From Escherichia coli (GTDB lineage: Bacteria; Pseudomonadota; Gammaproteobacteria; Enterobacterales; Enterobacteriaceae), in the NCBI RefSeq assembly GCF_013122565.1, contig NZ_CP053258.1: a stretch of 64,000 nucleotides of DNA; one strand, written 5' to 3'. The position numbers were made by a program, and so were the translations under genes. Of the stretch, positions 30,150 through 50,577 are shown in pieces. The notes beneath the pieces are model-generated. The model searched no databases, was not told the origin of the DNA, and was given only the letters and a program-made list of their open reading frames with translations. Within the stretch, counting starts at the first letter, position 1, and each line of letters starts with the position of its first letter.

Positions 30150-30177
30150 TTGCAATTCAGTGAGTGAGATTTATAAT
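30150..30177 (+). promoter_or_regulatory. predicted sigma70 promoter of zorO copy 1 (TTGCAA-16-TATAAT)
   Basis: -35 and -10 hexamers read directly; implies a 5' UTR of about 175 nt. Confidence 0.45.
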
Positions 30178-30448: not shown

Positions 30449-30471
30449 CGGGCAAATTGAAACGCATCTAA

Positions 30472-30496
30472 GGGGGAATACCGTTTCCCCCTTTAA
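30472..30496 (+). terminator. intrinsic terminator after zorO copy 1 (GGGGGAA-taccgt-TTCCCCC + TTT)
   Basis: Inverted repeat read directly. Confidence 0.5.
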
Positions 30497-30644
30497 TAAA
30501 ATGATTACATCTTCCATTAATTCACCCGATAACTTTTTTCATATTTATAAATTCATCGATTTTATAATCAACGTACTATTTGGCCGGGATGTGAATAATC
30601 ATGGTGGGCTATTGGCGAAAAATATCTGGAAAGTAGATCGCAGA

Positions 30645-30729
30645 AAATAAAAGAACCTGCTGGTGAGGCAGGTTCTTTTATTTACTACTTTGATGTTAAG
30701 TTACTGATAGTGCAACATGGCATCTCAAC
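30645..30729 (-). ncRNA. orzO: candidate OrzO-like antitoxin sRNA, copy 2
   Basis: Same architecture as copy 1 (terminator hairpin 30656..30672; -10 at plus 30736..30741); pairing segment TGCAACATGGCATCTCAAC differs from copy 1 and matches the zorO-2 UTR (30881..30899) with 2 mismatches. Confidence 0.35.
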
Positions 30730-30758
30730 GAACGAATTATAACCACCTCGGGGCCGTG

Positions 30759-30786
30759 TTGCAATTAAGATAATGAGATTTATAAT
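30759..30786 (+). promoter_or_regulatory. predicted sigma70 promoter of zorO copy 2 (TTGCAA-16-TATAAT)
   Basis: Hexamers read directly. Confidence 0.45.
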
Positions 30787-30967
30787 CCTGACTGTTGGGA
30801 AGTTGCGCCGGATCGAACCCATTTCAAGTCCTGGCTACCGGACGGGTGGTGCCGCAGGTAGTGCTCTGATCCGGAGTGCAACATGGCGACTCAACATACG
30901 TAAACCAGTATCGACAGGCAGTGTAAGGGTAAGGTGCTGGTGTTGCGCTCCTTAATAAGGAGAGCGG

Positions 30968-31057
30968 ATGGACACGCTGACAAAAAAGTTAACCGTGCTC
31001 ATTGCCGTACTGGAGTTATTAGTGGCTCTGTTACGGTTGATTGATTTGTTGAAGTAA
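30968..31057 (+). CDS. zorO: 29-aa hydrophobic type I toxin-like peptide, copy 2 (MDTLTKKLTVLIAVLELLVALLRLIDLLK; Q6K relative to copy 1)
   Basis: As copy 1; one amino-acid difference. Confidence 0.6.
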   Translation: MDTLTKKLTVLIAVLELLVALLRLIDLLK

Positions 31058-31080
31058 CGGGCAAATTGAAACGCATCTAA

Positions 31081-31105
31081 GGGGGAATACCGTTTCCCCC
31101 TTTAA
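31081..31105 (+). terminator. intrinsic terminator after zorO copy 2
   Basis: Same hairpin as copy 1. Confidence 0.5.
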
Positions 31106-31238
31106 TAAAGCTATACTCGTCATACTTCAAGTTGCATGTGCTGCGACTGCGTTCGTTCACCCCGGTCACTTACTTTAGTAAGCTCCTGGGAATTCACTCG
31201 CTTATCGCCTTCCTGCAACTTGAATTATTTAGAGTATA

Positions 31239-31541
31239 TTATTCTATTTCTTGGTTGAATATATTCTGTAGTTCGCGATTAAAAATTGCTATTACCGTTT
31301 CAGGTGATTCACCTCGTAATTTCCGCTCATCAATACACTCATCTCTTATATAAATCAACGCATCATTTATTTGCGGGTCGGCATCATTAAATGTTGGATG
31401 TAGCCGGAATCGCTCCAGCCGGTAGACGGAACCTGTAAATAATTCAGAGCATTTATGGATCTCAAGTCTGAAGGAAAACGGATCTTCAGGTACAGGGACC
31501 TCATAATCGTAAATAGCAACCAGCTCTTTTTGCACGATCAT
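31239..31541 (-). CDS. yehK: uncharacterised small protein YehK (100-aa ORF here)
   Basis: ORF track; sits immediately downstream of yehI (59-nt gap), same strand. Confidence 0.65.
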   Translation of the reverse strand: MIVQKELVAIYDYEVPVPEDPFSFRLEIHKCSELFTGSVYRLERFRLHPTFNDADPQINDALIYIRDECIDERKLRGESPETVIAIFNRELQNIFNQEIE

Positions 31542-31600
31542 CGCTTTCCCGTTGGTAAGTCGTGTTGAAAACGGGCAGTCGCATCACTGCCCGTTGTGTT

Positions 31601-34600
31601 TTAATGGAAAATGACGTCGGGTGCGCTTAACGCCTCACTCAAATCAAACACATCAAGTTCGGCAAAAGTGACGGATTTATTGTCACGGTACACTCGAAGA
31701 GAACGGAAGCTCATTAACGCTTTGCTATCAACATTGTAGTGGTTAAAACCGGGTGAAAACTTAAGGACCAGCCGGTACTCGCCCAGGTCATAGACAAATG
31801 CATCCTCATAGCCTGACTCCCAGCCTTTGTATCGCATTCCCATAAGCTGCCCAACGGTAGCGGATTTACCTTCCCAGCGAGTCAGGCTGTTACTGGTTGA
31901 CTCGTCAGGTGTGAGCAGCACCGTGCGGCGCGACAACTGGCGAAAAGGCGGCATAATTTCGTAATCGGCAAAAAGCTGTGCAAATTCACTGCGCATTTCT
32001 GCTGTCATTTCTAACGGGTGGGCAATGCCAATCAGAGCATCCGCAGGCAGGTCAATGGGCTCATCTTGCGCATTGCAGAACTCACCCTCTGCGGCCACAC
32101 GAAAGGCGTTGAGTAAACGACGCGGTTCATTTGCTGGATACACGCCCCATATTAATCGCTGAGTAACCAGGCGGGTAAAGGGATGATTAACAAACAGAGA
32201 ATGAAAATCTGCCAGCGACCAGCGTCGGGTGGTACGTAGGGCTGCTTCAAGACGCGGGAGCAGGTTTTTGCTCACCTGGGTGGCATCTTTTTTTAGCCCT
32301 TTTAGTCGGGCCAGTGCCTCGGGCGCTTTCAGTTGATCGTCATCGGCGCGCAACCGGGGAACACTTTTCTGGCGAACGTTTTGTTGATCAAAGATAACCG
32401 GGTTGAGGTTTTCATCGAAGCGAACGGTAAACTGCCGGGGACCAAAATCAAAAATCAACGCCTGCGGATCATCAAGACCCAGTGTTGGGACTAATCTGTC
32501 CGCTAACTCTTCCTGGCTTAGCCCGCGATTTTCTGCGACCACCTGAAGAAATTCCGCTGCGTTTTCACGTAATGAAGAGGATTTCGCCCGTTGTGATACA
32601 TGATGCAGCTGTATCAGCGCCATATCATTATTCATCAGGGTAAGTATATTCAGACCACTGACAGCACGGGCAGATTTGCCTTCTTGTGGCCAGGCGAGGA
32701 TCTGTGTCGTTAGATCCCGTGCCGTGCTTTCGTCACCAAAGAGACTTAACGCCAGAAATGCCCAGTTGTCTTTTGCGGGGGCACCAGCTTGTTGCCAGGC
32801 GGTGAAGAGATCCCAGGCAAAAGCTGCCAGCGTTTGCGGCTGGCAGAACGATTTCAGTTGTTCCAGTCCGCTATAAAAACGTCCCCCCTGGGTAAAGCGC
32901 AGCATTTCGCCGATAATTTCCAGAGCGTCATCGGTAACAGGTTGATTATTAGTGATAAGTCGAGGCCTGGACCACATTGCCGGATGCCAGAAATCAGGGG
33001 CTTTTGGAATGCGTGCCGGGTAAATCTCTATTTGACTCTGTTTAAGTAATTGTTCCAGGGCAGGCCATACATCAGCGCGATCCCAGCGGTTTGCCACGGT
33101 TTGTAGTAATACGCCATGTCCCTGTTCATACAGTAAACGCAGGGCAAGTAATGCAGCTTCGCTATTATCGCTGGATTTGGTGAAGACAAGAGGGATAAGT
33201 GCAGTAGCCGTATGTTCCGGCCATTGTAAAATCCACTGGCGGGCCAGATCACGCTGCGCCGCGAAACGTCGCCAGACGCGGGCAACAGGCAGGGCCAGTT
33301 CTGTTGCGCCAAAATGAATCAGCAGAGGAAATATCTCTTTTGGATGTCGGGCAAAGGCGGTGTTTAATCCAGGCAAAGCATCGGTACCCAGCACACTTAA
33401 CAGATATTCCCCCCCGGTGTAATGAAAATCAGCCTCGACAATTTGTTGCCAGCACGATACCGCCATTTCGTGCGGCATCTGCGCGATAAGGTACAGATTC
33501 CAAATCCCCCAACGCTTTTTATTACCATAGTAAAATCCGTGCTGAAAAGTTCGCCACCCTCCCATCAGCGCAATGCTATCTTGTGCCAGTAATGCTTTGG
33601 TGGCTTCTTCCCGGTACTGTTTAGATTTGGCCTGATACGCGTGATAAGTACGCAATAGTCCTATTGATGTGTATTCTTGCAGTTGCTGAGCATCAAAGGC
33701 ATCCAACTGTCCATGAAGAAGACGCTTATTAAATTCCAGGCTATGAACGTCAAAACCTAATTCCCGCAAGAAGGTATCCGCCCCTCTCTTAGCAAGACGT
33801 TCGTCAAAAGACATGGCGCTAAAATGGTCAATTGCAGTTTGCTGTTCCGGCGTCCAGTGTTTATTCGGCGACCTGTACGTTTGCGGTGCAAGCGTAAGAT
33901 CAGGCAGCGAAAAGTGAGGTATGGAAGTCTTTTTCTTCCTCCCACGCCATGGTGGTGAAACGAGGATTTCAGGCATTTGGCTGTTATCGGTACTATCAAT
34001 AACCGGTTTGGGCGGTGCCAATAAATAACTATTCAGTACTGCCCGGGCTTGAGTACTTAACCACTGCATCACCTCTTCTGCCAGTTGTGGCTGCGATGCC
34101 ATCAGCGTTTGTAACAGCGTACGCCAGTATTCATCTCGAGCTTTTTGCTGGGCAGGCAGCTTTTTGTCTTCGATGATTGGATAACCAGGGCGGGCTGGTG
34201 GTTCTTTTAACGCCAGCAGTTCTGCCAGTGCCGCGAGCGTCGCGTGGGGGAAGTTTTTACTGTATTTAGCCACACGTTGCAGGCTGGGTTTGTTTTTATC
34301 AGCCACCAGTAGCAAGGTGCGGATGACCTGCGGATGGTTAATTTGTACCAACAGACTGCCGCAATCTTCTTTATGGGCATACATCGCGAGGCGCGGAATG
34401 GCTGCCAGTCCTTGTTCGCGCAAAAGGGCGGCGCAGGCCGCGTAGCCGAAGTGGTTTTCATGCGACATGTAGCTGGCTTCGCGATCGCTAAATATATCCT
34501 GACTCCAGTAGTGATCGAGTTTCCTCACCGCTGTGGGGTCATTAGCAACAACTTTTAGCCACTCCTTAGAATGATAATGAGTCCGTGGGCATTCAAGGCC

Positions 34601-35248
34601 TATCAACTCATTGGCGATTTCTGGTTTTTCCGGGAGGATCAGCGCAATAAAAGGGCGGCGAACTTTGGTTATTCCTGGCAGTGCGGCAATGAGTTTGTCG
34701 GCGCAACGCTGCCAGCAGCTTTCCTCTGCCAGAGAGAGATGCTTACGCAGTCGGAGATCGAATTCGTTATAGGTTTCTGATCGATAACCATAGCCATAGT
34801 CCTCGTTCTGATACTGCAATGTCACTACCAGAGGATCACTCTCATAACACCGCGCAATAAACTGGCGTGCAATCACCACCTCAGTCGCATATTCCAGCCC
34901 CTCTTGTTGGACGATTTCGTCGAGTAACTGTTGGCTGTCATTTTGCGCGATACAGGCTAGCGCCGCCATTGTCCGGGCCGGGATTGAGGGTTTGTGTTCG
35001 CCGATCAAGTTGATGGCCTGCGTGATGGCGGACTGCCACTCCAGTGAAAAATTCTCATAACGCCAGACAATGTTTTTTTTCTTCTCAGCTTTTTGTAGCA
35101 ATTCATCACCCAGTGTCTGAATGATGCTTTCAGTGATAACAGGCACTGGTTCGCCCGGCCAATTGCGATGGCTGAGTGGTGTTTTGCCTTTTTTATATTT
35201 CAGTTCCAGTTGGGCGTTATCCGCCAGCCACGGTAATTCCTTGTCCAT
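31601..35248 (-). CDS. yehI: giant MolR-like protein YehI (1215 aa), lacking the N-terminal WGR domain
   Basis: Shares conserved C-terminal blocks with the four upstream paralogs (FAQLFADYEIMPPFRQL, RRWSLADF...HPFTRLVTQRLIWGVY, LEYATEVVIA); begins at the LPWLADN motif that follows the WGR domain in the paralogs. Confidence 0.85.
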   Translation of the reverse strand: MDKELPWLADNAQLELKYKKGKTPLSHRNWPGEPVPVITESIIQTLGDELLQKAEKKKNIVWRYENFSLEWQSAITQAINLIGEHKPSIPARTMAALACIAQNDSQQLLDEIVQQEGLEYATEVVIARQFIARCYESDPLVVTLQYQNEDYGYGYRSETYNEFDLRLRKHLSLAEESCWQRCADKLIAALPGITKVRRPFIALILPEKPEIANELIGLECPRTHYHSKEWLKVVANDPTAVRKLDHYWSQDIFSDREASYMSHENHFGYAACAALLREQGLAAIPRLAMYAHKEDCGSLLVQINHPQVIRTLLLVADKNKPSLQRVAKYSKNFPHATLAALAELLALKEPPARPGYPIIEDKKLPAQQKARDEYWRTLLQTLMASQPQLAEEVMQWLSTQARAVLNSYLLAPPKPVIDSTDNSQMPEILVSPPWRGRKKKTSIPHFSLPDLTLAPQTYRSPNKHWTPEQQTAIDHFSAMSFDERLAKRGADTFLRELGFDVHSLEFNKRLLHGQLDAFDAQQLQEYTSIGLLRTYHAYQAKSKQYREEATKALLAQDSIALMGGWRTFQHGFYYGNKKRWGIWNLYLIAQMPHEMAVSCWQQIVEADFHYTGGEYLLSVLGTDALPGLNTAFARHPKEIFPLLIHFGATELALPVARVWRRFAAQRDLARQWILQWPEHTATALIPLVFTKSSDNSEAALLALRLLYEQGHGVLLQTVANRWDRADVWPALEQLLKQSQIEIYPARIPKAPDFWHPAMWSRPRLITNNQPVTDDALEIIGEMLRFTQGGRFYSGLEQLKSFCQPQTLAAFAWDLFTAWQQAGAPAKDNWAFLALSLFGDESTARDLTTQILAWPQEGKSARAVSGLNILTLMNNDMALIQLHHVSQRAKSSSLRENAAEFLQVVAENRGLSQEELADRLVPTLGLDDPQALIFDFGPRQFTVRFDENLNPVIFDQQNVRQKSVPRLRADDDQLKAPEALARLKGLKKDATQVSKNLLPRLEAALRTTRRWSLADFHSLFVNHPFTRLVTQRLIWGVYPANEPRRLLNAFRVAAEGEFCNAQDEPIDLPADALIGIAHPLEMTAEMRSEFAQLFADYEIMPPFRQLSRRTVLLTPDESTSNSLTRWEGKSATVGQLMGMRYKGWESGYEDAFVYDLGEYRLVLKFSPGFNHYNVDSKALMSFRSLRVYRDNKSVTFAELDVFDLSEALSAPDVIFH

Positions 35249-35257
35249 GCTCTTTCC

Positions 35258-38200
35258 TTATTCAAACAGGGCTTCAATATCATTAATTAACTCGCTGGTG
35301 GTGATGGCATCGAGTACGGAGAACTGCGCTTCCTGAGTTGAATTATTCCTCCAGCCATAGCTTTCTGCTTTGCCTTCCCATAGCCACAGCTTGCTTAAGA
35401 GCTGCTCGGCGCTAAGTTCGGCTGGCGACATACCCACAGCAAAGCCTTCATCGATTTCCATGATTAACGACCAGCGGCCCAGGGGTTTGATCATCCAGCA
35501 GATCCAGCCTCCATCCTGTGGTTCGCCCTTTATCCAGCCTTTATTCGCCAGCCCCATGACCCGACCACTCGGGCATTTTCTGCCTGCCCAGCGGGTCAGT
35601 TCGCTGGCGTTGCGCTCGGCTTCTGTCAGGGCGTAACTGTTACGGTCAAGCTGACGGAACGGTGGTAGCAGTTCGTAGTCGGCAAAAAGCTGACCAAAGG
35701 CGGCAGCATCCGTCGGTGATATTTCCAGAACGTGAGGAATACCAATAGAGATATCGCCTTCCGGCAGGGTGAAAAGATCATCGTCAGCGGTGCTGTAACT
35801 GTTATCTTCCGCCACGCGAAAGCACGCCAGCAGCTGGTTTTCGGCGCTATAAACGCCCCAAATCAGACGACGGGTTAAGTGGCGAACCAGCGGGTGCTCA
35901 ACCAGGAAAAGCTGAAAGTTTTCCGGCGACCAGCGGCGGCGCAGGCACATGGCGGATTCCAGCCTTGCTACCTGCTGGGCGGCGACGGTACGCGCATCTT
36001 TTTTCAGCAATTTGTAGCGGTTTACCGCCTCATCAGCCCGCGATTCATCATCGCTTTTATTGGGTTTAGGTAAGTCTTTCAGGCGGCTGCCGGAAACATC
36101 ACGCACAAACGGTTTTAAGGTTTCATCAAAGCTGACGGTGAACTGGCGTGAGCCGAAATCCAGCAGCAACGAACCGTTATCATCCAGACCGAGATCCGGG
36201 GCCAGGCGATCTTCTAGCTCCGCCACCGTGAGTTCGCGGCTTTCGGCAATGTCGGCAATTTTTTCTTTTGCCCGCTCCTGTAATGCTTTGAATTTCAGTT
36301 TCTGGGCGATGCCGTTAAGTTGCATCAAGGCGATATCACTACCGATAGTGGCGAGAATATCCAACCCAACGGTGGCGCGTTTATGCTGGGATTCACCAGG
36401 CCAGGCACGGATTAATGGCGTCAGTTTGCGGGCGGTGTCATCGTTACCGAGAACACCTAACGCGTTGAACGCCCAGCTCTCTTTCGACGGCGCGCCAGCG
36501 GTCTGCCAGGCGGTAAACAGATCCCAGGCAAATCCCGCCAGTGAGTCGGGGGTACAGGCATCTTTCACCTGCAATAATCCCGGATACAGTGCCTCTTCCT
36601 GAGGGAAGCGGAGCATTTCACCGAGGTAGAGTAGGGCGCTATCGGGCAGTGATTGGGCGTTTGCTTTTAATACCGGGCGCGTCCAGAGCGATGGCTGATA
36701 AAAGGCCGGAAGAGTGGGGATTTTTGTCGGGTGATTATCTAAGGGATCGAGCGCAAGCAGAGCGTTCACCGCGTCTGTTACTTCCGGCTGGTTATAACGC
36801 CGGGCGATTTCTTGCAGTAATGGCTGATGACCGTTTTCGGTAAGCATACGCAAGGCAGCGCGGGCGTTATCCTGTGCTTCACCGGCTTTGCCGAGCGCGG
36901 CAGGCAGCAGGCCGGTAATGGCGTGTTCCGGGTATTTCAACAGCCAGCTACGGGCGTCTTGTCGTAGGGTTTTGAGTTTGTTGAAGGCGCGGGCAATCAG
37001 TGGCGCTAATTCGATAGCCGCAAAATATTGTGCTATAGGCAGCGCTTCTTGCGGATAGCGAGATGCTGAGTGGATAAAACCTGTTAAACCAGCAAGTCGA
37101 AGATGCAACATTACTTGTTTTGCACCTGTATGTGGTTCTTTACTAAGGATGTTCCACATCTCGATAGCTTTATTAATGGGTAAAACATGGAGTGAAGAAA
37201 GATTCCATTCGCCCTGATAAGGGGAGTTATAGGACTTAAAAGCATCAATCAGCGCTGAATAATCTTCACGCTGCCAGGCATCCAGTGCTATTTCTGGAAC
37301 ATCAATATAGCCTCTATGTTTGTTCCAATCCCAGCGGTTGAATCCCAGGGAGGTCAGAAAAGCTTTTTCTCCCTCAGCTTGCTGATGAGGTTGCCAGTTA
37401 TGCTGCACTTGCAGTGTTTTGCTTTTTGTTTCATTTATTGTACAGAAGGATTCTAGGGATAATGGTGCTAAATCCAGCACCGAAATCGTCGATTTTTTCT
37501 TTTTAGCCAGCCAGGGCGGTGAGATTAGTACGGCAGGCAGCAAATCGGCGTTCGCATAAACTGAAGGTTGTGTCAGTTGTTGCAGGCATGACTTAAGTTC
37601 GGTAACCGCCGGAGCAGATAGCCAGGGAATTACCTGCTCTGCTAATGTTGGTTGTGAGATAAGCATTGTCATTAGCATCATGCGCCAGCGCTTTTCATCT
37701 TTTTGTGCCAGAAGTTCTGCTAATGCCGCCAGCGCTGCATGTGGAAAGCGAACGAAAGCCTTTGTCATGCGATCGTGGCAACGCTTTCCCTGCTCGCTTG
37801 CATGGATAAGTAGTGTAAGTGCCTGGGGGTGGTTGATATGCATCAACACTTCCCCACATGTGTCACCAGCAGCGTAAGGAGCAAAACGGGCCAGCGCAGC
37901 GACACCTTGCTCCTTGAGTATCGTTGCACACCAGATTTTACCGCCGTAATAATCATCAAATACCTGCCCAGGCTGTCCTGGATAGTATTTTCCCAGTTCT
38001 GCCAATACCTGCTCGTCGGTGGTCGTCAGTTTCAGCCATTCCAGCGCATATAACCCTTTTTGTCCACAAAGATGTCTGGCAATCTCATGAGCTACTTCTG
38101 GTTTTTCCGGCAACAATAGTGCAACCAGTGGCTGGTGCCACGTGGGCATGGTTCCGAGAGCGGCAATCAGTTTGTCGGCGCAGCGCTGCCATACATCGTC

Positions 38201-39016
38201 ATTTGCAAGTGAGAGATGCTTACGCAGGCGCATTTCAACCGAAGCGAAGCGTAACAGATAGCCAGGCTGCCTGTTATCCGGGGTAACCGTAATGAGATGG
38301 GCATCATAATCCCAGTCGAAGCGGATGAATTGCAATGCAATGACAACCTCAGTGGCATATTCCAGACCACCTTCCTGGACAATTTGATCCATTAGCTCTT
38401 CATGATCGTTACGATTGAAGCCTTGTTCCAGCGCAACCAGTACCGCCAGAACCATCGGTGGTAGCGTGGTGCTAATTGGCGAGTCGATAAGGCCTACGGC
38501 TTGTGTAATTGCCTGCTGCCAGTCCAGTGAACAGGTGCTGTAATCGAAGGTGAGCACCTTTTTAAAACGCCGGTGAGTATTCGCGGCGACGGAGCGTAGC
38601 AGGGTTAATTCATTCTCCTGTGGCACAGGAGCGCCAGGCCAGCGTCGATGACTTAGTGTGGTTGGCGCAACCTCTGTCGGTAAAATGATTTGGGTGTCGT
38701 CTGCCAGCCAGGGGAGGTGGTCTCCAGTAAATGCCGGTTTGTCTTGTGGCAAAGGGGTTATTTCCGGGCATTCGATAACCTTGCCGGGCGCAGATGTCGG
38801 TGTCATCACGGATACTTCTTCTACGTAGCCCTTTTTTGTTTTCTCCGTAATCAGCTTCAGTTCCGCTTTTTCCGCCGCTGCAGCATCTGCAAAGCTTTTT
38901 ACCTGGCTTTGCCCGTTAGTACCGACTTTGCCCCAGGTAATATGCAGCTCGTTTCCCTGCTGCTCCACCGCCCAGAATTTATGTGATTTTTCATCCTGAT
39001 AAATATAGGTTTTCAT
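35258..39016 (-). CDS. MolR-like giant protein, paralog 1 (1252 aa): N-terminal WGR domain plus YehI-like body
   Basis: N-terminus MKTYIYQDEKSHKFWAVEQQGNELHITWGKVGTNGQ (WGR signature); body shares blocks with YehI; 9-nt gap to yehI. The corresponding K-12 locus (molR) is a pseudogene by my recollection. Confidence 0.8.
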   Translation of the reverse strand: MKTYIYQDEKSHKFWAVEQQGNELHITWGKVGTNGQSQVKSFADAAAAEKAELKLITEKTKKGYVEEVSVMTPTSAPGKVIECPEITPLPQDKPAFTGDHLPWLADDTQIILPTEVAPTTLSHRRWPGAPVPQENELTLLRSVAANTHRRFKKVLTFDYSTCSLDWQQAITQAVGLIDSPISTTLPPMVLAVLVALEQGFNRNDHEELMDQIVQEGGLEYATEVVIALQFIRFDWDYDAHLITVTPDNRQPGYLLRFASVEMRLRKHLSLANDDVWQRCADKLIAALGTMPTWHQPLVALLLPEKPEVAHEIARHLCGQKGLYALEWLKLTTTDEQVLAELGKYYPGQPGQVFDDYYGGKIWCATILKEQGVAALARFAPYAAGDTCGEVLMHINHPQALTLLIHASEQGKRCHDRMTKAFVRFPHAALAALAELLAQKDEKRWRMMLMTMLISQPTLAEQVIPWLSAPAVTELKSCLQQLTQPSVYANADLLPAVLISPPWLAKKKKSTISVLDLAPLSLESFCTINETKSKTLQVQHNWQPHQQAEGEKAFLTSLGFNRWDWNKHRGYIDVPEIALDAWQREDYSALIDAFKSYNSPYQGEWNLSSLHVLPINKAIEMWNILSKEPHTGAKQVMLHLRLAGLTGFIHSASRYPQEALPIAQYFAAIELAPLIARAFNKLKTLRQDARSWLLKYPEHAITGLLPAALGKAGEAQDNARAALRMLTENGHQPLLQEIARRYNQPEVTDAVNALLALDPLDNHPTKIPTLPAFYQPSLWTRPVLKANAQSLPDSALLYLGEMLRFPQEEALYPGLLQVKDACTPDSLAGFAWDLFTAWQTAGAPSKESWAFNALGVLGNDDTARKLTPLIRAWPGESQHKRATVGLDILATIGSDIALMQLNGIAQKLKFKALQERAKEKIADIAESRELTVAELEDRLAPDLGLDDNGSLLLDFGSRQFTVSFDETLKPFVRDVSGSRLKDLPKPNKSDDESRADEAVNRYKLLKKDARTVAAQQVARLESAMCLRRRWSPENFQLFLVEHPLVRHLTRRLIWGVYSAENQLLACFRVAEDNSYSTADDDLFTLPEGDISIGIPHVLEISPTDAAAFGQLFADYELLPPFRQLDRNSYALTEAERNASELTRWAGRKCPSGRVMGLANKGWIKGEPQDGGWICWMIKPLGRWSLIMEIDEGFAVGMSPAELSAEQLLSKLWLWEGKAESYGWRNNSTQEAQFSVLDAITTSELINDIEALFE

Positions 39017-40450
39017 TGCAAATTCCTTTTAATCAAACAGTGATTCAATATCGTTAATCAGCTCGCTGGCAGTGATGTCGTCGAGCACGGAGAAGGGATA
39101 AACCGATTTGCGCGGCGTCAGTTTGTACAACTGAATGTGCTCAATTTTTTGGTTATCGCTGATTTCGGTGACGGGCAATCCAACACAGAAGCCGGGTGTC
39201 ACACTCAGTTCGACGTAGCCATCATCCACAGCTTTATAAAATGAGTAATAGCCGCCACCATCCAGAACATCGCCCCGTTGCCAGCCTTTATTCATCAGCC
39301 CGGCGACGCGCCAACTCGCTGCCTGGCGACCAGCCCAGCGCTGCAAATCGTTGCTGTTTTTTTCTGAATCAGAGAGCTGAGACCAGGGGCGATCAAGTTG
39401 ACGGAACGGTGGCAGGAGTTCGTAGTCAGAGAACAGTTGGGCAAATTCAGCAGCCTGTGGGGCCGGGATTTCCAGCACATGCGGGATACCGATACAGCCC
39501 TGCGCAAGGGTAAACGGGGTATCCTGACCGTCGCTAAAACTGCCATCCTCCGCCACGCGAAAACAGCAAATAAGGTGATTATCAGCGTCATAAATGCCCC
39601 ACATCAGACGTTGGGTGATATGACGAACCAGGGGATGCTCAACCAGAAACAGGCGGAACTGTTCTGCAGTCCAGCGGCGACGCTGACACATGGCGGCTTC
39701 CAGACGCGAAATCTGTTGTGCAGCTACCGTGCGGACATCTTTTTTCAACAACTTGTAGCGATTTACCGCTTCCTCAGCCAGCGTTTCATCATCGCTTTTG
39801 TTCGGTTTGGGCAGGTCTTTCAGACGGTTGCCGGAAGTATCGCGCACAAACGGTTTTAAGGATTCATCAAAGCTGACGGTGAACTGGCGTGGGCCGAAAT
39901 CCAGCAGCAGCGAACCGTTATCATCCAGACCGAGATCGGGCGCTAACCGGTCTTCCAGCTCTGCGACAGTGAGCTGGCGGCTTTCGGCAATCTGGGCGAT
40001 TTTAGTTCTAGCCTGATCCTGCAAGGCTTTAAATTTTAGCTTTTGCGCAATGCCGTTAAGCTGCATCAGGGCGATATCGCTGCCGATAGCAGCAAGAATA
40101 TCCAGCCCGACAGTGGCGCGTTTATGCTGGGATTCCCCCGGCCAGGCGCGGATGAGCGGGGTGAGTTTGCGGGCGGTGTCATCGTTACCCAGAATCCCCA
40201 GTGTGGTAAATGCCCAGTTATCTTTAGCTGAGCCACTGGCAGATTCCCAACTGAGGAAGAGATCCCAGGCAAAATCGGCAAGAGATTGCGGGGTACAGGC
40301 CTCGATTACCTGTGTAATTCCTGGGTAAAGGGTGGCTTCGCGGGGGAAAGAGAGCATGGTGCACAGGTGCAGGATGGCTGAATCTGAAAGTGCCTTGCCG
40401 TTACTGCGCAGAAGCGGGCGGTGCCATACTTCTGGCGAACACCACCCAGG
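39017..40450. repeat. about 1.4 kb direct repeat (copy A) spanning the 3' part of paralog 2 and its downstream junction
   Basis: Near-identical by eye to 42866..44300 (offset 3849 bp); only scattered substitutions over the first about 1.2 kb; spurious plus-strand ORFs recur at identical offsets (39196/43045, 39798/43647, 40050/43899). Confidence 0.8.
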
Positions 40451-42865: not shown

Positions 42866-44300
42866 TGCAAATTCCTTTTAATCAAACAGTGATTCAATAT
42901 CGTTAATCAGCTCGCTGGCAGTGATGTCGTCGAGCACGGAGAAGGGATAAACCGATTTGCGCGGCGTCAGTTTGTACAACTGAATGTGCTCAATTTTTTG
43001 GTTATCGCTGATTTCGGTGACGGGCAATCCAACACAGAAGCCGGGTGTCACACTCAGTTCGACGTAGCCATCATCCACAGCTTTATAAAATGAGTAATAG
43101 CCGCCACCATCCAGAACATCGCCCCGTTGCCAGCCTTTATTCATCAGCCCGGCGACGCGCCCACTCGCTGCCTGGCGACCAGCCCAGCGCTGCAAATCGT
43201 TGCTGTTTTTTTCTGAATCAGAGAGCTGAGACCAGGGGCGATCAAGTTGACGGAACGGTGGCAGGAGTTCGTAGTCAGAGAACAGTTGGGCAAATTCAGC
43301 AGCCTGTGGGGCCGGGATTTCCAGCACATGCGGGATACCGATACAGCCCTGCGCAAGGGTTAACGGGTTATCGTGACCGTCGCTAAAACTGCCATCCTCC
43401 GCCACGCGAAAACAGCAAATAAGCTGATTATCAGCGTCATAAATGCCCCACATCAGACGTTGGGTGATATGACGAACCAGGGGATGCTCAACCAGAAACA
43501 GACGGAACTGTTCTGCAGTCCAGCGGCGACGCTGACACATGGCGGCTTCCAGACGCGAAATCTGTTGTGCAGCTACCGTGCGGACATCTTTTTTCAACAA
43601 CTTGTAGCGACTTACCGCTTCCTCAGCCAGAGTTTCATCATCGCTTTTGTTCGGTTTGGGCAGGTCTTTCAGACGGTTGCCGGAAGCATCGCGCACAAAC
43701 GGTTTTAAGGATTCATCAAAGCTGACGGTGAACTGGCGTGGGCCGAAATCCAGCAGCAGCGAACCGTTATCATCCAGACCGAGATCGGGCGCTAACCGGT
43801 CTTCCAGCTCTGCGACAGTGAGCTGGCGGCTTTCGGCAATCTGGGCGATTTTAACTCTTGCCTGATCCTGCAAGGCTTTAAATTTTAGCTTTTGCGCAAT
43901 GCCGTTAAGCTGCATAAGAGCGATATCGCTGCCGATAGCAGCAAGAATATCCAGCCCGACAGTGGCGCGTTTATGCTGGGATTCCCCTGGCCAGGCGCGG
44001 ATGAGCGGGGTGAGTTTGCGGGCGGTGTCATCGTTACCCAGAATCCCCAGCGCGGTAAATGCCCAGTTATCTTTAGCGGAGCCACTGGCAGATTCCCAAC
44101 TGAGGAAGAGATCCCAGGCGAAATCAGCAAGAGACTGCGGAGTACAGGCCTCGATTACCTGTGTAATCCCGGGGTAAAGGGTGGCTTCACGGGGGAAAGA
44201 GAGCATGGTGCACAAGTTCAGGATAGCTGAGTCAGGAAGTGCCTTGCCGTTACTGTGCAGAAGCGGGCGATGCCATACTTCTGGCGAACACCAGGTGGGG
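42866..44300. repeat. about 1.4 kb direct repeat (copy B) spanning the 3' part of paralog 3
   Basis: See copy A. Confidence 0.8.
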
Positions 44301-46618
44301 AGTTTGGCGATTTTCTGCGGAAAATTATCGAGTGGGTCGCAGTTAAGGACATCTAACAAACCTGTAAGCACTTCTGGCTGATTATAGCGGTGGGCAATTT
44401 GTTCCATTAACGGCTGATGCCCATGATGAGCCAAATAGCGTATTGCCATCACAGCATCCTCACGTTCACTGCCCGGTTTGCCGAGTACAGCAGGTAATAG
44501 ACCTGTAATAGCATGTTCCGGATAGGTTAATAACCAACGCTGTGCGACGTCACGTACAGATTTTAGCTGACGAAAAGCGCGTGCCATTAATAGCGCCACG
44601 TCGGTTGTACCAAAACGTGCGGCTAAAGGAATGGCTTCCTGAGGTACGACTAAGGCGTGACGCAGCAAGCCGGGTAATGTGGGAAGACCGTAATAGTCCA
44701 CTACTTCGCATGCGTTAATCAGATGTAGGTGAGTCAGTGCGTTCCATATTTTCAGTGCTTTATTTTCTGTTAGCTGAAGCAATACAGACACATTGACAAG
44801 GATATGACTTGCCCACCGAGGTTTATCCCAGATCTTTAATAAAGCTTCGTAATTGTCTTGCTCGAAAAAATCAATGGCAGCCTGAGGTATACCCCAACCA
44901 AGCTCTTCGCAATGGAAGTTCAACAAATCCAGGATATCTTTCGCTGATGGGGATGGCGCAGATGGCTCAGTCAGATTTTTTGTTGCGGGGATAGATTCCA
45001 GGGGGGAAAGAGGTAATACCCGGAGAGTGAGGTTGATACCAGCAACCTTTTTCTTTTTTTTCACCCATGAAGGGGCGATCAATATACTAGGTAACTCATT
45101 CTGATGAGCAATTTTTTCGCTGGACATAAGCTGAGGAAAATAACTAAATAAAATTTGTTGCTGTTTTTCGTCAAGGCAGGGTAGCGTTTTATGTAAGGCT
45201 TGCGCATTACCCAAGATGATGCGCTCCAGTAAACGATAATAGCGCGGGTTATTTGTGTGATTTAAGGCTTTTGTTAATGCATAAAGTGCAGCTTCTGGAT
45301 GTAAATTTGTTGCGCATTCCACTTCACTGATACATTCTTCTTTTATTAATATATTAATGGCGTCAGGATGATTAACTTGTGTAATTAGATTTTTAACTGA
45401 ATAACTATCCTTTATCCAACGCTGAAGAAGCGGAAGAGCTTTTACCCCTCGTTCGCGCAGTAATGTCGCAGTGCATTTTTCAGCCATCTGCCAGTCGTTA
45501 TAGCGCTTAAGTTGGTTAAGATTCATTAATTCATTGAGTGCCTGCGCATCTGTGGCAACGATATCCAACCATTCCATTTCTGGGTAATTAACACATTGCA
45601 CTAAATCAAGGACAATTTGATTAGCAATTTCAGGTTGTTCAGGCAAAAGAAAACCAATTAAAGGACGTTTACGTGGAGACAGGAAAGGCAACGCTTGAGT
45701 AAGCTTTTTCATGCACCGTTGCCATGTTTTTTCATCAGTGCGCGAGAGATGATTTCGCAAGTGAAAATCTACAGTGCTGAAGCCGAACTCAAAACGTTGT
45801 TCTGATATTGTGTTACTGAGAATAAGCGTTGGTACGGAATTATTTGTAAAAAAATTGTATTCCATGCGAACATACAAAAGGCATTTATTTAATGCATCAC
45901 AATTTCCTGGATCTTGATTTTGATCATCAGATATCTGAATTTGCTGCAATAGCAAGACTAATTCGGTCGCGTATTCTACCCCATGTTGTTGCACCAGATA
46001 ATCAAAAAGATCATTGACACTATCGCTATTTTGCATAAGTAACTTGACCAGCAAAAAGAATGCATCGGAGAAAATAGAACCGTCTATATTTTTCTGCTGA
46101 ACGCGCATGATTGCTTCATCCCGGCCTCGTTGCCATTCCGGGCGGCAGTCACTCACATCAAAATGCTGTAATTGTGCAAGAAAATAGTATTCCTCATATT
46201 TGTTTTCCCATAAGAATGACCATAACGAGATATCTTTAGCAAACGTGCTGACACTGTCTGCTGGGAATTTCCTACTGCTAAATACTCTCTTCGTTTCGAG
46301 AATAATTGGTTCAATGTCTGCAATCCACGGTGGTGTGTCGACATCAGTAATAATTGGATGTTGTTCGCTATCATCATCTGTGGTGGGAACAGCAATCAGC
46401 ATGTTTATATCGTCAGTCGATTTTACATACCCCTTCTTCACCTTCTCCGCAATCAGCTTCAGTTCCGCTTTTTCCGCCGTTGCAGCATCTGCAAAGCTTT
46501 TTACCTGACTTTGCCCGTTAGTGCCGACTTTGCCCCAGTTGATATGCAGCTCGTTGTCTTGCTGCTCAACCGCCCAGAATTTATGTGATTTTTCGTCCTG
46601 ATAGATATAGGTTTTCAT
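42878..46618 (-). CDS. MolR-like giant protein, paralog 3 (1246 aa)
   Basis: WGR N-terminus; divergent, AT-rich N-terminal/central coding region; C-terminus near-identical to paralog 2. Confidence 0.8.
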   Translation of the reverse strand: MKTYIYQDEKSHKFWAVEQQDNELHINWGKVGTNGQSQVKSFADAATAEKAELKLIAEKVKKGYVKSTDDINMLIAVPTTDDDSEQHPIITDVDTPPWIADIEPIILETKRVFSSRKFPADSVSTFAKDISLWSFLWENKYEEYYFLAQLQHFDVSDCRPEWQRGRDEAIMRVQQKNIDGSIFSDAFFLLVKLLMQNSDSVNDLFDYLVQQHGVEYATELVLLLQQIQISDDQNQDPGNCDALNKCLLYVRMEYNFFTNNSVPTLILSNTISEQRFEFGFSTVDFHLRNHLSRTDEKTWQRCMKKLTQALPFLSPRKRPLIGFLLPEQPEIANQIVLDLVQCVNYPEMEWLDIVATDAQALNELMNLNQLKRYNDWQMAEKCTATLLRERGVKALPLLQRWIKDSYSVKNLITQVNHPDAINILIKEECISEVECATNLHPEAALYALTKALNHTNNPRYYRLLERIILGNAQALHKTLPCLDEKQQQILFSYFPQLMSSEKIAHQNELPSILIAPSWVKKKKKVAGINLTLRVLPLSPLESIPATKNLTEPSAPSPSAKDILDLLNFHCEELGWGIPQAAIDFFEQDNYEALLKIWDKPRWASHILVNVSVLLQLTENKALKIWNALTHLHLINACEVVDYYGLPTLPGLLRHALVVPQEAIPLAARFGTTDVALLMARAFRQLKSVRDVAQRWLLTYPEHAITGLLPAVLGKPGSEREDAVMAIRYLAHHGHQPLMEQIAHRYNQPEVLTGLLDVLNCDPLDNFPQKIAKLPTWCSPEVWHRPLLHSNGKALPDSAILNLCTMLSFPREATLYPGITQVIEACTPQSLADFAWDLFLSWESASGSAKDNWAFTALGILGNDDTARKLTPLIRAWPGESQHKRATVGLDILAAIGSDIALMQLNGIAQKLKFKALQDQARVKIAQIAESRQLTVAELEDRLAPDLGLDDNGSLLLDFGPRQFTVSFDESLKPFVRDASGNRLKDLPKPNKSDDETLAEEAVSRYKLLKKDVRTVAAQQISRLEAAMCQRRRWTAEQFRLFLVEHPLVRHITQRLMWGIYDADNQLICCFRVAEDGSFSDGHDNPLTLAQGCIGIPHVLEIPAPQAAEFAQLFSDYELLPPFRQLDRPWSQLSDSEKNSNDLQRWAGRQAASGRVAGLMNKGWQRGDVLDGGGYYSFYKAVDDGYVELSVTPGFCVGLPVTEISDNQKIEHIQLYKLTPRKSVYPFSVLDDITASELINDIESLFD

Positions 46619-46630
46619 TGCTAAATCCTT

Positions 46631-49600
46631 TTAATCAAACAGTGATTCGATGTCGTTAATCAGCTCGCTGGCGGTGATGTCGTTGAGCACGGAGAAAGTG
46701 GGTGAGGATTGTTTACCATAGCGATCATAAGGGGCGGTGATTTTTACGCTTTCGACAGGCAGCAGGTCGCTATACCCCGTTTCGCCATAAATTAATGAAA
46801 AAGGTTCTGTTTCAAGTTCGAGAGCGCCATAAGGGGTAGATTTGCGCATCGCATAGATGCTGCCGCTTTCTTCCAGACGTTGCCAGCCTCTGCGTTCCAG
46901 CCCGACAATGCGTCCGGCCTGGCAGAGACGTCCGTTCCAGCGTGACAATTCATGGGCATCACGCTCGTTATCCGCAAGGTGGTAACTACCACGATCGAGC
47001 TGTTGGAAAGGGGGAAGCAGTTCGTAATCAATGTATATTTGCCTGAATGCAGCGGCGGATTCAGGGGGGATTTCCAGCACATGCGGAATACCGATGTTTC
47101 CTGCTGGCAGCGTGAATAGCTCATCCTGCGCATCGCTGTAAGTGCTGTCTTCTGCCACACGAAAACAGGTGATAAGGGCGTTTTCATCGTTATAAACCCC
47201 CCATAACAGCCGTCGGGTTAAGTGACGTACCAGCGGATGCTCCACCAGAAACAGGCGGAACTGCTCTGCCGTCCAGCGTCTGCGCTGGCACATAGCCTGC
47301 TCCAGACGATCAATCTGCTGGCTGGCAATGGCGCGCACATCTTTCTTCAATTGTTTAAAGAGGTTAACGGCGTCAGTTGCCAGTGTTTGATCATCGCTCT
47401 GGTTTGGTTTGGGTAAATCTTTCAGGACTTTGCCGTTTGCGTCGCGAACCACGGGTTTCAAGGTTTCGTTAAAACCAACGGTGAATTGACGTGGGCCGAA
47501 ATCAAGTGTCAGCGAGCCATTGCTATCAAGCCCTAAATCTGGAGCCAGGCGGTCTTCCAGTTCAGCCATAGTCAGCCCACGGTTTTCAGCAACTATGTTG
47601 ATTTTCTCGCGGGCATGTTCCTGTAATGCTTTGAATTTAATTTTTCGCGCGATGCCATTAAGCAGCATTAGCGCAACATCGCTGCCAATATCAGCTAATA
47701 CATCCAGCCCGGACACCGCCCGTTTATGCTGGGATTCCCCAGGCCAGGCGCGGATGAGCGGAGTTAATTTACGCGCGGTGTCGTCATTGCCTAAAATCCC
47801 AAGCGAAGTAAATGCCCAGTTTTCTTTTGCTGGGGCACCAGCTTCTGTCCAGGCGGTATACAGATCCCAGCCAAAGTCAGCCAGTGATTCGCGGGTGAAG
47901 GTTTCTCTAATGATATCCAGCCCAGCGTAGGCGGTAATGTCGCGTGGAAAGCTCAACATTGTGCCGAGGTGGCGCATAGCGTCATCTGGCAGAGGCAGGT
48001 TGTTACTTTTAAGCCGAGGTCTGTGCCATAAGGTGAACTGATAAAAGCCGGGCAGTGGGGCGATTTTTGCAGGATATTCTTCCAGTGGGTCGCTATCAAA
48101 TAATGTTGCCAGCGCAGCTAAAACATCAGGTTGATTATATCCTTGGGCGATTTCCTCAATCGTTTCTCGCTGGTTTAAATTCACCAGCAGGCGGAGCGCC
48201 TGGCGGGCACAATCACGATCTTTTCCTTTTTTGCCCAGGGCCACAGGAAGTAGCCCGGCGGCGGCATGGCGCGGATAATCAGTTAGCCAGTTTCGCGCAT
48301 CTTCATAAGACATTTTTTTCTGTAATTGTTGCGCCATCGGTAAGGCCAGTTCACTGACACCGAGGAAAAAGGGGAAGAAGCACAGGCGTCGTGGATCACG
48401 TTGCAGGCAGGTCATAAATGCAGGTATGGCGGCGCTACCAAAAAGTGCCAGAATATTTCCCTCACCAGAGTAGTTATCTTCTTTGACTATCTGGTTAAGA
48501 AAAGAAATGGCCTGTTGACCAGGCAGGTAACAGAGGGCAATAAGATTCCAGCTTTTGTATGCATTGTTATGGTATTGCACAAATTCAGCATTCAATGCTG
48601 GAAAATCGAAGCGTAGCAGGGCATCAACGGCACTTTGTGGCGCCGGAATTTTTTCGTATATTTTTTCTCCGCTCTCCCGCCATTTTTCAAAACCAAGATG
48701 CCACAGTATTTGTTGCTCCGGTGTAAGCGGTATTAAGTGTTTCTCCCAGCTTGCTTTTTTCATCGGTGCCAGGTCGGTAAACAATGTTTGTTTTGTCGCC
48801 TGCTGTTGGGCTATTTGCTGGAAGCGGGTGATAAGGTAAGTACGGGTCAGTTTTTTGGCAATCTCTGGAGTGATATCCGAAACAGAAGGAACTGGGAGCA
48901 CAGGAAGATCAAACACCGGCGTATTTTTCTTTTTCTCTTTGGTCATCCAGGGAGGCGAAACAAACAGCTCTGGCAACATATCCGCAGTGGCATATTCACA
49001 TTCTTCAGCGACTGACTGCGGACGACATTCAGATAAGATGCCAGCGGCTTTGGCATTAACCCAGGGAATGACGTCGCATACTAACTCTGGCGTGATGGTA
49101 ATCAGTTTGATAAGTGCGTTACGCCACTGTGCATCTTCATGTATTGCCAGCAAAGTAGCATAAGCGGCAAGAGCCGCAGCGGGATGTTTTTGACAGGCTT
49201 TGCTTAAGTATTCCAGGTGCTTTTTCTTGCCAATCACACCGAGGATCAGAATTTGAATCGCATCCGGGTGATTCGTTTTCCATAGCCATTTGACAAGATT
49301 TTCAGTCTCGCTGTTGCGCTCGAAAAGATAAGTGGGATTGTCAGAATGCTCTTCCGTAAACTCAAGAAGGATCTGGCTTACACCCCGAATTCCATTATTC
49401 GCCAGCAACATTGCCAGATAAGCGCGAAAATTACGAAAATCACGATACAACGGTGGGAAGTCGTATTTTTCCACTGTACTAAGAGCAGTATCATCGGTTA
49501 TCACCAGTCTTAACCAGGTCATCGCCGGAACGTTTTGGTCTGCATAGCGTAGAGCCATAGCATTGGCAATATCCGGGCGTTCAGGGAGCAGTAACGCCGC

Positions 49601-50437
49601 AAAAGGTTGCCGTGCTGGAGATAGCGAGGGAATAGCCGCGAGTACTTTATCTACACAGCGTTGCCACTCATCTTCTGAAGCGAGTGAAAGATGATGACAT
49701 AGACGTTGATGCCAACTAGGTAGCGATTCTGCTTCGTGATTAGGTGGAATGATGGTGGTTACTGCGCCTTTTACTGGTTTATATCTAAGTTGAATAGCGA
49801 GAAGGGCAATTTCAACGGCGCTTTCCAGACCACAGCGAATGACTAAGTCATCGACCAGTTCATCTGCAGAGTAAGAGTTCCAGAAACTCCAGAGCAATGC
49901 TGCATCAGATTGCGCACTCCCTGTCTGTTGATTACCCTGAACTCGCATTTGTAACTCAGCAAAAGCATGCTGCCAGTTTTCTGGATAAGAACGGTAATTG
50001 TTGTCGGGATCATATGCCCTGGTGTTATCTGCAATACGCTTCCATATCTCACCGTCTTTGCGCAGATAATTGATCTCTCTGGGGCGAGAGCGATGAGGGA
50101 AAGCAAATCGATTAATATCGTCAGTTACCGGAATGACTGCATCATCAGCCAGCCATGGGCGTTTGTTTTTACTCTCAAGGGAAGTTTCAACTTCAGGAGT
50201 GGCTTTGGTGCTGGAGATATGCACGTTTGCTGAAGCATCTTCCACATAGCCTTTTTTCGTTTTCTCTGCGATAAGCTTTAGTTCCGCTTTTGCCGCTGCC
50301 GCAGCATCCGCAAAACTTTTTACCTGGCTTTGCCCTTGGGTGCCAACTTTTCCCCAACTGATATGCAACTCGTTTCCCTGTTGCTCCACCGCCCAGAATT
50401 TATGTGATTTTTCGTCCTGATAGATAAAGCGTCTCAT
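46631..50437 (-). CDS. MolR-like giant protein, paralog 4 (1268 aa)
   Basis: N-terminus MRRFIYQDEKSHKFWAVEQQGNELHISWGKVGTQGQ (WGR); most divergent of the four but retains conserved blocks (TARKLTPLIRAWPGESQHKRA, DYELLPPFQQLDR). Confidence 0.8.
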   Translation of the reverse strand: MRRFIYQDEKSHKFWAVEQQGNELHISWGKVGTQGQSQVKSFADAAAAAKAELKLIAEKTKKGYVEDASANVHISSTKATPEVETSLESKNKRPWLADDAVIPVTDDINRFAFPHRSRPREINYLRKDGEIWKRIADNTRAYDPDNNYRSYPENWQHAFAELQMRVQGNQQTGSAQSDAALLWSFWNSYSADELVDDLVIRCGLESAVEIALLAIQLRYKPVKGAVTTIIPPNHEAESLPSWHQRLCHHLSLASEDEWQRCVDKVLAAIPSLSPARQPFAALLLPERPDIANAMALRYADQNVPAMTWLRLVITDDTALSTVEKYDFPPLYRDFRNFRAYLAMLLANNGIRGVSQILLEFTEEHSDNPTYLFERNSETENLVKWLWKTNHPDAIQILILGVIGKKKHLEYLSKACQKHPAAALAAYATLLAIHEDAQWRNALIKLITITPELVCDVIPWVNAKAAGILSECRPQSVAEECEYATADMLPELFVSPPWMTKEKKKNTPVFDLPVLPVPSVSDITPEIAKKLTRTYLITRFQQIAQQQATKQTLFTDLAPMKKASWEKHLIPLTPEQQILWHLGFEKWRESGEKIYEKIPAPQSAVDALLRFDFPALNAEFVQYHNNAYKSWNLIALCYLPGQQAISFLNQIVKEDNYSGEGNILALFGSAAIPAFMTCLQRDPRRLCFFPFFLGVSELALPMAQQLQKKMSYEDARNWLTDYPRHAAAGLLPVALGKKGKDRDCARQALRLLVNLNQRETIEEIAQGYNQPDVLAALATLFDSDPLEEYPAKIAPLPGFYQFTLWHRPRLKSNNLPLPDDAMRHLGTMLSFPRDITAYAGLDIIRETFTRESLADFGWDLYTAWTEAGAPAKENWAFTSLGILGNDDTARKLTPLIRAWPGESQHKRAVSGLDVLADIGSDVALMLLNGIARKIKFKALQEHAREKINIVAENRGLTMAELEDRLAPDLGLDSNGSLTLDFGPRQFTVGFNETLKPVVRDANGKVLKDLPKPNQSDDQTLATDAVNLFKQLKKDVRAIASQQIDRLEQAMCQRRRWTAEQFRLFLVEHPLVRHLTRRLLWGVYNDENALITCFRVAEDSTYSDAQDELFTLPAGNIGIPHVLEIPPESAAAFRQIYIDYELLPPFQQLDRGSYHLADNERDAHELSRWNGRLCQAGRIVGLERRGWQRLEESGSIYAMRKSTPYGALELETEPFSLIYGETGYSDLLPVESVKITAPYDRYGKQSSPTFSVLNDITASELINDIESLFD

Positions 50438-50539
50438 TCTGCATCCCTGTAATTTTATCCAGTTGAATGCAGATGCTACCAGTATTTATGCGGGTTAGAG
50501 AGAGACAAAATCGCAAGAAAACAACTTTAGGAATTTATA

Positions 50540-50566
50540 AAGAAAAGGCGCTGTCGATGCAGCGCC
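50540..50566 (-). terminator. intrinsic terminator of metG (stem GGCGCTG/CAGCGCC, U-tract on minus strand)
   Basis: Inverted repeat 50547..50553 / 50560..50566 with AGAAAA (plus) giving UUUUCU downstream on the minus strand, 12 nt after the metG stop. Confidence 0.55.
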
Positions 50567-50577
50567 TTGAAGGGGGA

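Follow-up and report, generated by a model that had tools for sequence, protein, structure and literature searches.

A four-copy form of the Escherichia coli metG–molR–yehI–yehK locus and its probable expression from the molR promoter

How is a train of very long, tightly spaced genes transcribed? The question is raised by a stretch of 64,000 nucleotides from an Escherichia coli genome (contig NZ_CP053258.1 of assembly GCF_013122565.1; hereafter, the window), in which six genes follow metG on the minus strand. A preliminary description had offered two alternatives: either a promoter in 50438..50539 gives rise to a polycistronic transcript of roughly 19 kb, or the train is normally silent and depends on read-through from metG or on cryptic internal promoters. 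Both alternatives hold in part, as there is one upstream promoter and that promoter is normally near-silent. We put at about 0.65 the probability that a single weak, activator-dependent promoter, PmolR, which is listed as a LexA target, drives the first five genes (P_A to yehI) as one coupled message that continues partly through the sixth gene, yehK.

The train is the E. coli metG–molR (yehF/yehH)–yehI–yehK–yehLMPQ region in inverted orientation, with its MolR part expanded to four tandem, diverged paralogs (types A to D, encoded by P_A to P_D). It lies directly after metG, is co-directional with metG, and is preceded by the K-12 intergenic sequence. Pfam matches, alignment, and the orthology table identify, in this order, genes with a WGR and a DUF4132 domain, the DUF4132-only YehI, and YehK. 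Gene limits and gaps were taken from the open reading frame (ORF) list and the junction read-out of the window, minus strand, and they confirm a six-gene train from the P_A start at 50437 to the yehK stop at 31239. All six ORFs 3' of metG are intact and ATG-initiated. The successive gaps from metG through P_A, P_B, P_C, P_D, and yehI to yehK are exactly 140, 12, 12, 12, 9, and 59 nt; the short spacers first described, including those of 9 and 59 nt, are therefore correct, except that the three given as 12–13 nt are each exactly 12 nt.

The K-12 molR–yehI–yehK locus has the same position after metG, an identical 140-nt interval, gaps of 9 and 60 nt (59 nt here), a hairpin after yehI, and the same protein families. 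In K-12, however, the only MolR-type gene is a pseudogene, whereas the window carries four intact ones (A, B, C, and D), and in the window two zor-orz units part yehK from yehL. We are thus dealing with a known locus of ordinary operon architecture, and what is new is its maximal copy-number form. The promoter question has largely been answered by experiments on identical K-12 DNA, and the spacing is standard for operons. The strain nevertheless carries the locus, which in K-12 is a pseudogene, in an intact form of five genes and ~19 kb, and is therefore a better test system for a weak promoter under LexA and BglJ–RcsB control that drives a very long coupled message.

The metG–P_A interval and its promoter

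The 140-nt interval between metG and P_A is 100% identical to that of E. coli K-12 in an alignment. When the E. coli and Klebsiella intergenic sequences are aligned, four blocks are conserved and the rest has diverged. The blocks are the metG terminator, an RcsB-type box, the hexamer TAGCAT(C), and a LexA box. The terminator, which had been placed within this interval, is found at 50568..50545 and insulates the array from metG.

The interval 50438..50539, proposed to hold the promoter, is the K-12 DNA in which the molR promoter has been mapped. According to Salscheider et al. 2014 (PMC3950696), the metG–molR intergenic fragment was fused to lacZ, and the start was mapped by 5' rapid amplification of cDNA ends (5'-RACE) of primary transcripts. 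The same authors describe the RACE product obtained in the absence of BglJ as "apparent but very weak", and find that BglJ–RcsB activation is lost upon mutation of the predicted box or insertion of 5 bp and is partly restored by insertion of 10 bp, and that the centre of the activator box lies 65–68 bp upstream of the molR start. They also report no upward change of molR expression in an hns stpA mutant, indicating that the promoter is not repressed by H-NS. A PmolR–mVenus reporter gives the same behaviour (PMC5025477). PMC6590174 places molR among the E. coli LexA genes with a known SOS box, and LexA binding and DNA-damage induction of molR are mentioned in secondary literature citing Fernandez de Henestrosa 2000 and Courcelle 2001. 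With a very weak RACE product in the absence of BglJ and with molR listed as LexA-repressed, the proposal that the array is normally silent is largely right.

The core of the activator site, AATTCCTA (50535..50528), matches the published motif wwTTCykA, and the right half of the site equals the RcsAB half-site. Because the published distance from box to start is 65–68 bp and TAGCAT is conserved in Klebsiella, we infer that PmolR starts near 50468..50464 with TAGCAT (50478..50473) as its −10 element. The score of TAGCAT in a position weight matrix (PWM) is low, as expected for an activator-dependent promoter. Given a start near 50468..50464, the LexA box would lie at about +1 to +20; it overlaps the transcript start and the P_A Shine–Dalgarno sequence. 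It is the only intergenic CTG-N10-CAG with an A+T-rich core in the window. The published work on identical DNA shows that transcription begins at this one weak sigma-70 promoter, PmolR, just past the metG terminator, that it depends on activation by BglJ–RcsB, and that PmolR is near-silent in ordinary growth.

Two other −10 candidates were rejected. AATACT (50486..50481), with TTGTCT as −35, is favoured by the PWM, but its start would be ~58 bp from the box centre instead of 65–68 bp, and it is not conserved in Klebsiella; we therefore do not take it as the main promoter. TAAAAT within the LexA box reads TAAAAA in Klebsiella, and its message would be nearly leaderless and would have no Shine–Dalgarno sequence.

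Like LexA-controlled SOS genes such as ruvAB and uvrA, the array has an A+T-rich CTG-N10-CAG over its promoter or initial transcribed region. It differs from them in that its products have no recognised repair function, in that a second, positive input (BglJ–RcsB) acts on the same promoter, and in that the operon would be far longer than a typical SOS unit.

Spacers, junction module and copy number

The train has several features of a polycistronic operon: co-directional genes, short spacers, and a ribosome-binding site for each gene, with a Shine–Dalgarno sequence 4–6 nt before the ATG in six of six genes (−4.3 to −6.2 kcal/mol). Long coupled operons such as nuo are likewise composed of co-directional genes with few-nt spacers, a Shine–Dalgarno sequence for each gene, and a single upstream promoter. 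Compared with these, the train reaches ~19 kb with only six genes, five of which are 3.6–3.8 kb, and, in place of the subunits of a known complex, it encodes paralogs. A single ~19-kb transcript is plausible because of the short spacing. The RNA would continue through P_A, P_B, P_C, P_D, and yehI as one message. The 9–12-nt spacers (stop codon, AAGGA, ~6 nt, and ATG) would allow ribosomes to terminate and restart without leaving naked RNA, and coupled translation would shield a message so long and so weakly initiated from Rho-dependent polarity.

The same spacing is found elsewhere. Gaps of 140/12/12/9/60 nt recur in other E. coli assemblies, the 9-nt gap between P_D and yehI is present likewise in K-12, and the Klebsiella values are 138/12/12/14. 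Arrays of differing make-up ([A E], [A D E], [A B D E], [C D E], where E denotes YehI, and Klebsiella with four WGR copies) are equally spaced. A locus of the Klebsiella oxytoca group (L007) shares metG, an interval of ~138 nt, four WGR and DUF4132 genes, a YehI-type gene, spacers of 12, 12, and 14 nt starting with AAGGA, and yehL and yehM downstream, as well as the terminator, the RcsB-type box, TAGCAT, and the LexA box. It differs from the window in that it has no yehK, that its paralogs are only ~55% identical to those of the window, and that behind its YehI-type gene there is a canonical terminator-like hairpin of 14 bp.

The regular spacing is no chance pattern, yet the five junctions are not independent observations. 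The three 12-nt junctions are 88–100% identical in DNA, and the adjoining coding DNA is 25–60% identical. The similarity defines a junction module of roughly 250 nt, which takes in the final ~55 nt of one gene, the spacer, and the initial ~190 nt of the gene after it. Over the first 62 codons of B, C, and D, synonymous-codon identity is 83–96%, against a background of 30–50%. P_B and P_C share a ~1.3-kb 3' tract that is 96–100% identical and continues through the spacer. A direct repeat of ~1.5 kb (approximately 38823..40350 and 42672..44200; 96–100% identity) spans the P_C and P_B 3' ends together with the spacer and ~150–190 nt at the start of the following gene, and points to a recent tract of gene conversion or unequal crossing-over. 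The likeness of the junctions as a whole bears the signature of one or the other process. As the three 12-nt spacers are part of this homogenised module, they do not represent independent events. The Klebsiella spacer, AAGGAATTGGTC, shares the 12-nt length and the AAGGA core with E. coli, which suggests that the arrangement is constrained, most simply by termination–reinitiation coupling. Homogenisation of the junction module by gene conversion or unequal crossing-over would also yield the differences in copy number between strains. The locus illustrates how a conserved module of gene end, spacer, and gene start can drive copy-number change and cassette exchange in large, fast-diverging paralogs.

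The paralogs themselves are old. Identity is 45–47% between type A and the others, 69% between B and C, ~49–50% between D and either B or C, and 33–40% between YehI and the rest. P_A is the orthologue of the K-12 yehF/yehH (molR) pseudogene and is 88–97% identical to first-position genes of other E. coli. P_B is 94% identical to P0001. Type D is always the copy adjoining yehI. Orthologous types are 87–97% identical across strains, with internal blocks of only 36–70%. This blockwise divergence of alleles suggests cassette exchange or diversifying selection. The low-identity blocks lie in the central thirds of the paralogs (within 31601..50437), at alignment columns ~600–900 in types A, D, and YehI; the rest of the allele is 90–100% identical.

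K-12 has the array [A(pseudogene) E] and the window [A B C D E]; the make-up in other strains is [A D E], [A B D E], or [C D E], and in the closest relatives [A B fragment IS1] or [A B D(disrupted) E]. In 5,419 complete E. coli genomes there are 1–3 copies per genome (median 1) of the conserved WGR 5' segment, and the four MolR copies of the window exceed the maximum of three in the 5,426 complete E. coli genomes searched. Type C is rare, being matched at a coverage of at least 80% in 2 of 5,426 genomes. One Klebsiella genome has four WGR copies, one of which is not called as a gene. The initial BLAST search of the window gave 91% identity because paralogs were mismatched; metG and apbC are 99.6% identical to those of several complete E. 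coli genomes, and an origin in another Escherichia species, to which the 91% figure had pointed, was rejected.

Internal signals, transcript ends and competing explanations

The preliminary description saw no room for internal promoters or terminators, and in both respects it has to be corrected. Coding DNA can host promoters, and a PWM scan of the coding strand finds moderate sigma-70-like sites there, although they are not enriched. As for terminators, none of the intrinsic type is found in the 9–12-nt spacers, but the 59-nt yehI–yehK spacer contains a conserved hairpin with a 10-bp stem, followed by UUUU. The hairpin is kept in other E. coli, where its tail is UUAUCAAC (here, UUUUCAAC). It is probably the ancestral 3' boundary of the array, because Klebsiella, which has no yehK, carries its 14-bp terminator-like hairpin at the equivalent place. 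It is possibly also an attenuator before yehK. The hairpin scores as a plus-strand terminator as well, with the tail GUGUUUUAAU. An in vitro sigma-S transcription study reported an antisense signal with a K-12 yehI–yehK intergenic probe, and the hairpin may also block antisense RNA from entering yehI.

Part of the message would be halted or attenuated at this hairpin, and the remainder would run through yehK and end by the Orz terminator near 30650. The latter, which belongs to the first of the Orz small RNAs (sRNAs) downstream, marks the predicted latest possible end of the transcript because, downstream of yehK, no canonical terminator on the minus strand comes before it. Transcripts reading through yehK would run antisense to the nearer toxin gene. 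In the literature, yehL and yehM are described as responding to H-NS that binds the DNA upstream of these genes themselves. With the metG terminator above, and the Orz terminators and separate control of yehL and yehM below, the array is insulated on both sides.

Long-range processivity by RfaH and ops antitermination was considered for this message and rejected, as the leader has no ops element: GGCGGTAGnnTG is absent from 50438..50470, and elsewhere in the window there are only 1-mismatch matches, at chance level.

Several points weigh against a single message from PmolR. All the promoter experiments were done in K-12, where the promoter is followed only by the type-A pseudogene; bglJ and rcsB lie outside the 64-kb window; and the exact start and the box limits given above are inferred. 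The hairpin after yehI may end most transcripts short of yehK. In the SMRT-Cappable-seq supplements searched there are no entries for the array genes, and the 3'-end-mapping supplements searched contain only ends between yehK and yehL. Finally, there are signals within the train. TTGAAA-15-TAATTT lies ~170 nt upstream of P_B (PWM score 10.4), TTTTCA-15-TACAAT lies upstream of yehK (8.1), and P_A contains several moderate sites. The GC content is 0.39–0.45 in the 5' halves of P_C (41000..43000) and P_B (45000..46000) and ~0.52 elsewhere, and these A+T-rich parts could attract H-NS or create spurious promoters.

The same signals would be expected if the paralogs were expressed mainly from their own promoters in the upstream coding DNA, as several overlapping transcription units, and very long messages from weak promoters are prone to premature termination. 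However, promoter-like sites within the train are fewer than in shuffled sequence (15 versus 22.3 ± 3.5), none lies in the junction module, and the best sites before P_C, P_D, and P_E (yehI) score only ~4.5. In addition, regulatory-looking blocks are conserved between genera only upstream of the first gene. We consider this explanation unlikely.

Rather less credible is an array that is dispensable, decaying, and effectively never expressed, with tight spacing as a relic of tandem duplication. It would fit the silence under laboratory conditions and the record of damage, which comprises the K-12 pseudogene, frameshifts, insertions (IS1 and one other) in the closest relatives, and a resistance transposon in ST131. 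But over 18.8 kb all five large ORFs are intact; the 12-nt spacer length, the Shine–Dalgarno sequences, and the regulatory boxes are common to Escherichia and Klebsiella; the family is very large; and the C-terminal 650 residues are highly conserved, with a confidently modelled fold. The damage seen in other arrays includes a deletion associated with IS1 that extends into yehL, a third paralog split by an insertion, and a frameshifted yehI (L011 PT62, L012 6EVA, L002, and L006). The transposon is the blaCTX-M-15 element TnMB1860, described in the literature from the metG/DUF4132 region of an ST131 sublineage.

It is very improbable that the array lacks a meaningful promoter activity of its own and owes its transcription chiefly to read-through from metG, which is highly expressed. 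In favour are the co-directional position of metG at a distance of only 140 nt, the very weak basal activity of the molR promoter, and the fact that intrinsic terminators are never 100% efficient. Against it, the metG terminator is canonical and conserved, the lacZ fusions and 5'-RACE of PMC3950696 place initiation inside the intergenic fragment, with activation that depends on BglJ–RcsB, the conserved boxes of the LexA and RcsB type would be purposeless, and read-through is not required to account for expression.

Table 1 Coordinates of the array, its regulatory elements, and flanking features in the window
Feature	Coordinates	Strand	Details and basis
metG	50578..52620	−	ORF list
metG intrinsic terminator	50545..50568	−	9-bp G+C-rich stem, then UUUUCUUUAU; −15.5 kcal/mol, z −5.85; structure kept in Klebsiella
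BglJ–RcsB activator site	50526..50543	−	CTTTATAAATTCCTAAAG; identity to K-12; block kept in Klebsiella; limits predicted
Candidate −10 hexamer of the molR promoter	50473..50478	−	TAGCAT, with a poor −35, TCTCTA; conserved in Klebsiella
LexA (SOS) box	50445..50464	−	AACTGGATAAAATTACAGGG; CTG-N10-CAG at 50447..50462; pattern scan; kept in Klebsiella
P_A, MolR-type paralog, type A	46631..50437	−	1268 aa; WGR + DUF4132; ORF list, Pfam
Spacer P_A/P_B	46619..46630	−	12 nt, AAGGATTTAGCA; Shine–Dalgarno AAGGA
P_B, MolR-type paralog, type B	42878..46618	−	1246 aa; WGR + DUF4132; ORF list, Pfam
Spacer P_B/P_C	42866..42877	−	12 nt, AAGGAATTTGCA
P_C, MolR-type paralog, type C	39029..42865	−	1278 aa; WGR + DUF4132; ORF list, Pfam
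Spacer P_C/P_D	39017..39028	−	12 nt, AAGGAATTTGCA
P_D, MolR-type paralog, type D	35258..39016	−	1252 aa; WGR + DUF4132; ORF list, Pfam
Spacer P_D/yehI	35249..35257	−	9 nt, GGAAAGAGC; Shine–Dalgarno overlaps the TAA stop codon
P_E (YehI)	31601..35248	−	1215 aa; DUF4132 only, no WGR; ORF list, Pfam
Hairpin in the yehI–yehK spacer	31570..31595	−	10-bp stem, then UUUUCAAC; −18 to −20 kcal/mol, z −3.6
yehK	31239..31541	−	100 aa; ORF list; alignment to K-12 yehK
Zor toxin ORF	30968..31057	+	29 aa
Orz sRNA (OrzO-P)	30649..30722	−	
First Orz sRNA terminator	30644..30675	−	GAACCTGCCTCACCAGCAGGTTC, then U-tract; first canonical minus-strand terminator after yehK
Zor toxin ORF	30359..30448	+	29 aa
Orz sRNA (OrzO-P)	30040..30113	−	

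The encoded proteins and the flanking genes

The WGR/DUF4132 family comprises 6,038 clusters at 50% identity (E <= 1e-3), and the listed SOS link of so large a family (>6,000 such clusters) is under-explored. The conserved C-terminal 652 residues are modelled with a pLDDT of 95.6 as an alpha-solenoid followed by an alpha/beta DUF4132 domain. Fold searches with this 652-residue model return generic HEAT/ARM-like matches only, and no catalytic or effector fold is recognised. A sequence search for solved homologues matches only the WGR domain of 2ra8 and gives none for YehK, which also has no family match in Pfam. NCBIfam gives only a partial, WGR-level match to an unrelated equivalog, far below the cut-off. 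P_A, P_D, YehI, YehK, YehL, and YehM have no match in PADLOC-DB 2.0, and a catalogued anti-phage defence system was therefore rejected.

A more speculative proposal, to which we attach little weight, is that the array is a repertoire of sensor or adaptor proteins that diversifies and is induced by DNA damage, that the junction module is a built-in recombination site for shuffling and amplifying cassettes, and that the array and YehLMPQ form a stress or conflict system. The proteins combine a nucleic-acid-binding WGR domain at the N-terminus with a middle part of hypervariable alpha-solenoid and a conserved C-terminus made up of solenoid and DUF4132 domain. Partners would be the adjacent MoxR-type ATPase, DUF5682, VWA, and SWIM proteins (YehLMPQ). 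In that case, no E. coli set seen would be fuller than the [A B C D E] of this strain. The proposal draws on the listed SOS control, on induction in Deinococcus, where one WGR protein and one DUF4132 protein are induced by DNA damage in the literature, on the blocks of 36–70% identity in alleles that are otherwise 90–97% identical, and on the yehLM linkage, which is kept in Klebsiella. Against it, three distant homologues that were sampled do not show the linkage, and the proposal is further weakened by the lack of a recognised catalytic or effector fold and by frequent inactivation of the locus. A supplement on proteomics under ciprofloxacin, which was searched, has no entries for the array genes.

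Upstream of the array, the longest metG ORF begins three codons 5' (52611..52620) of the usual MetG N-terminus (MTQVAKK...). Downstream, the longest yehL ORF (28840..29994) begins 22 codons upstream of the annotated start (MSPQNN...); with the annotated start, the real gap between yehK and yehL is ~1310 nt. The stretch between these two genes (29995..31238) carries two tandem zor-orz type I toxin–antitoxin units, each with a Zor ORF and an OrzO-P sRNA (Table 1).

K-12 has been reported to be without zor-orz. Its yehK–yehL stretch retains an Orz-like promoter, TTGCAA-17-TATAAT, and a terminator remnant (L001 11291..11596; genome 2204290..2204595). The remnant is near-identical to the Orz terminator, and its sequence matches the downstream Orz copy at 30067..30036. 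A published K-12 RNA 3' end, 2204485, falls exactly on this remnant. This suggests that K-12 holds an orphan antitoxin-like sRNA.

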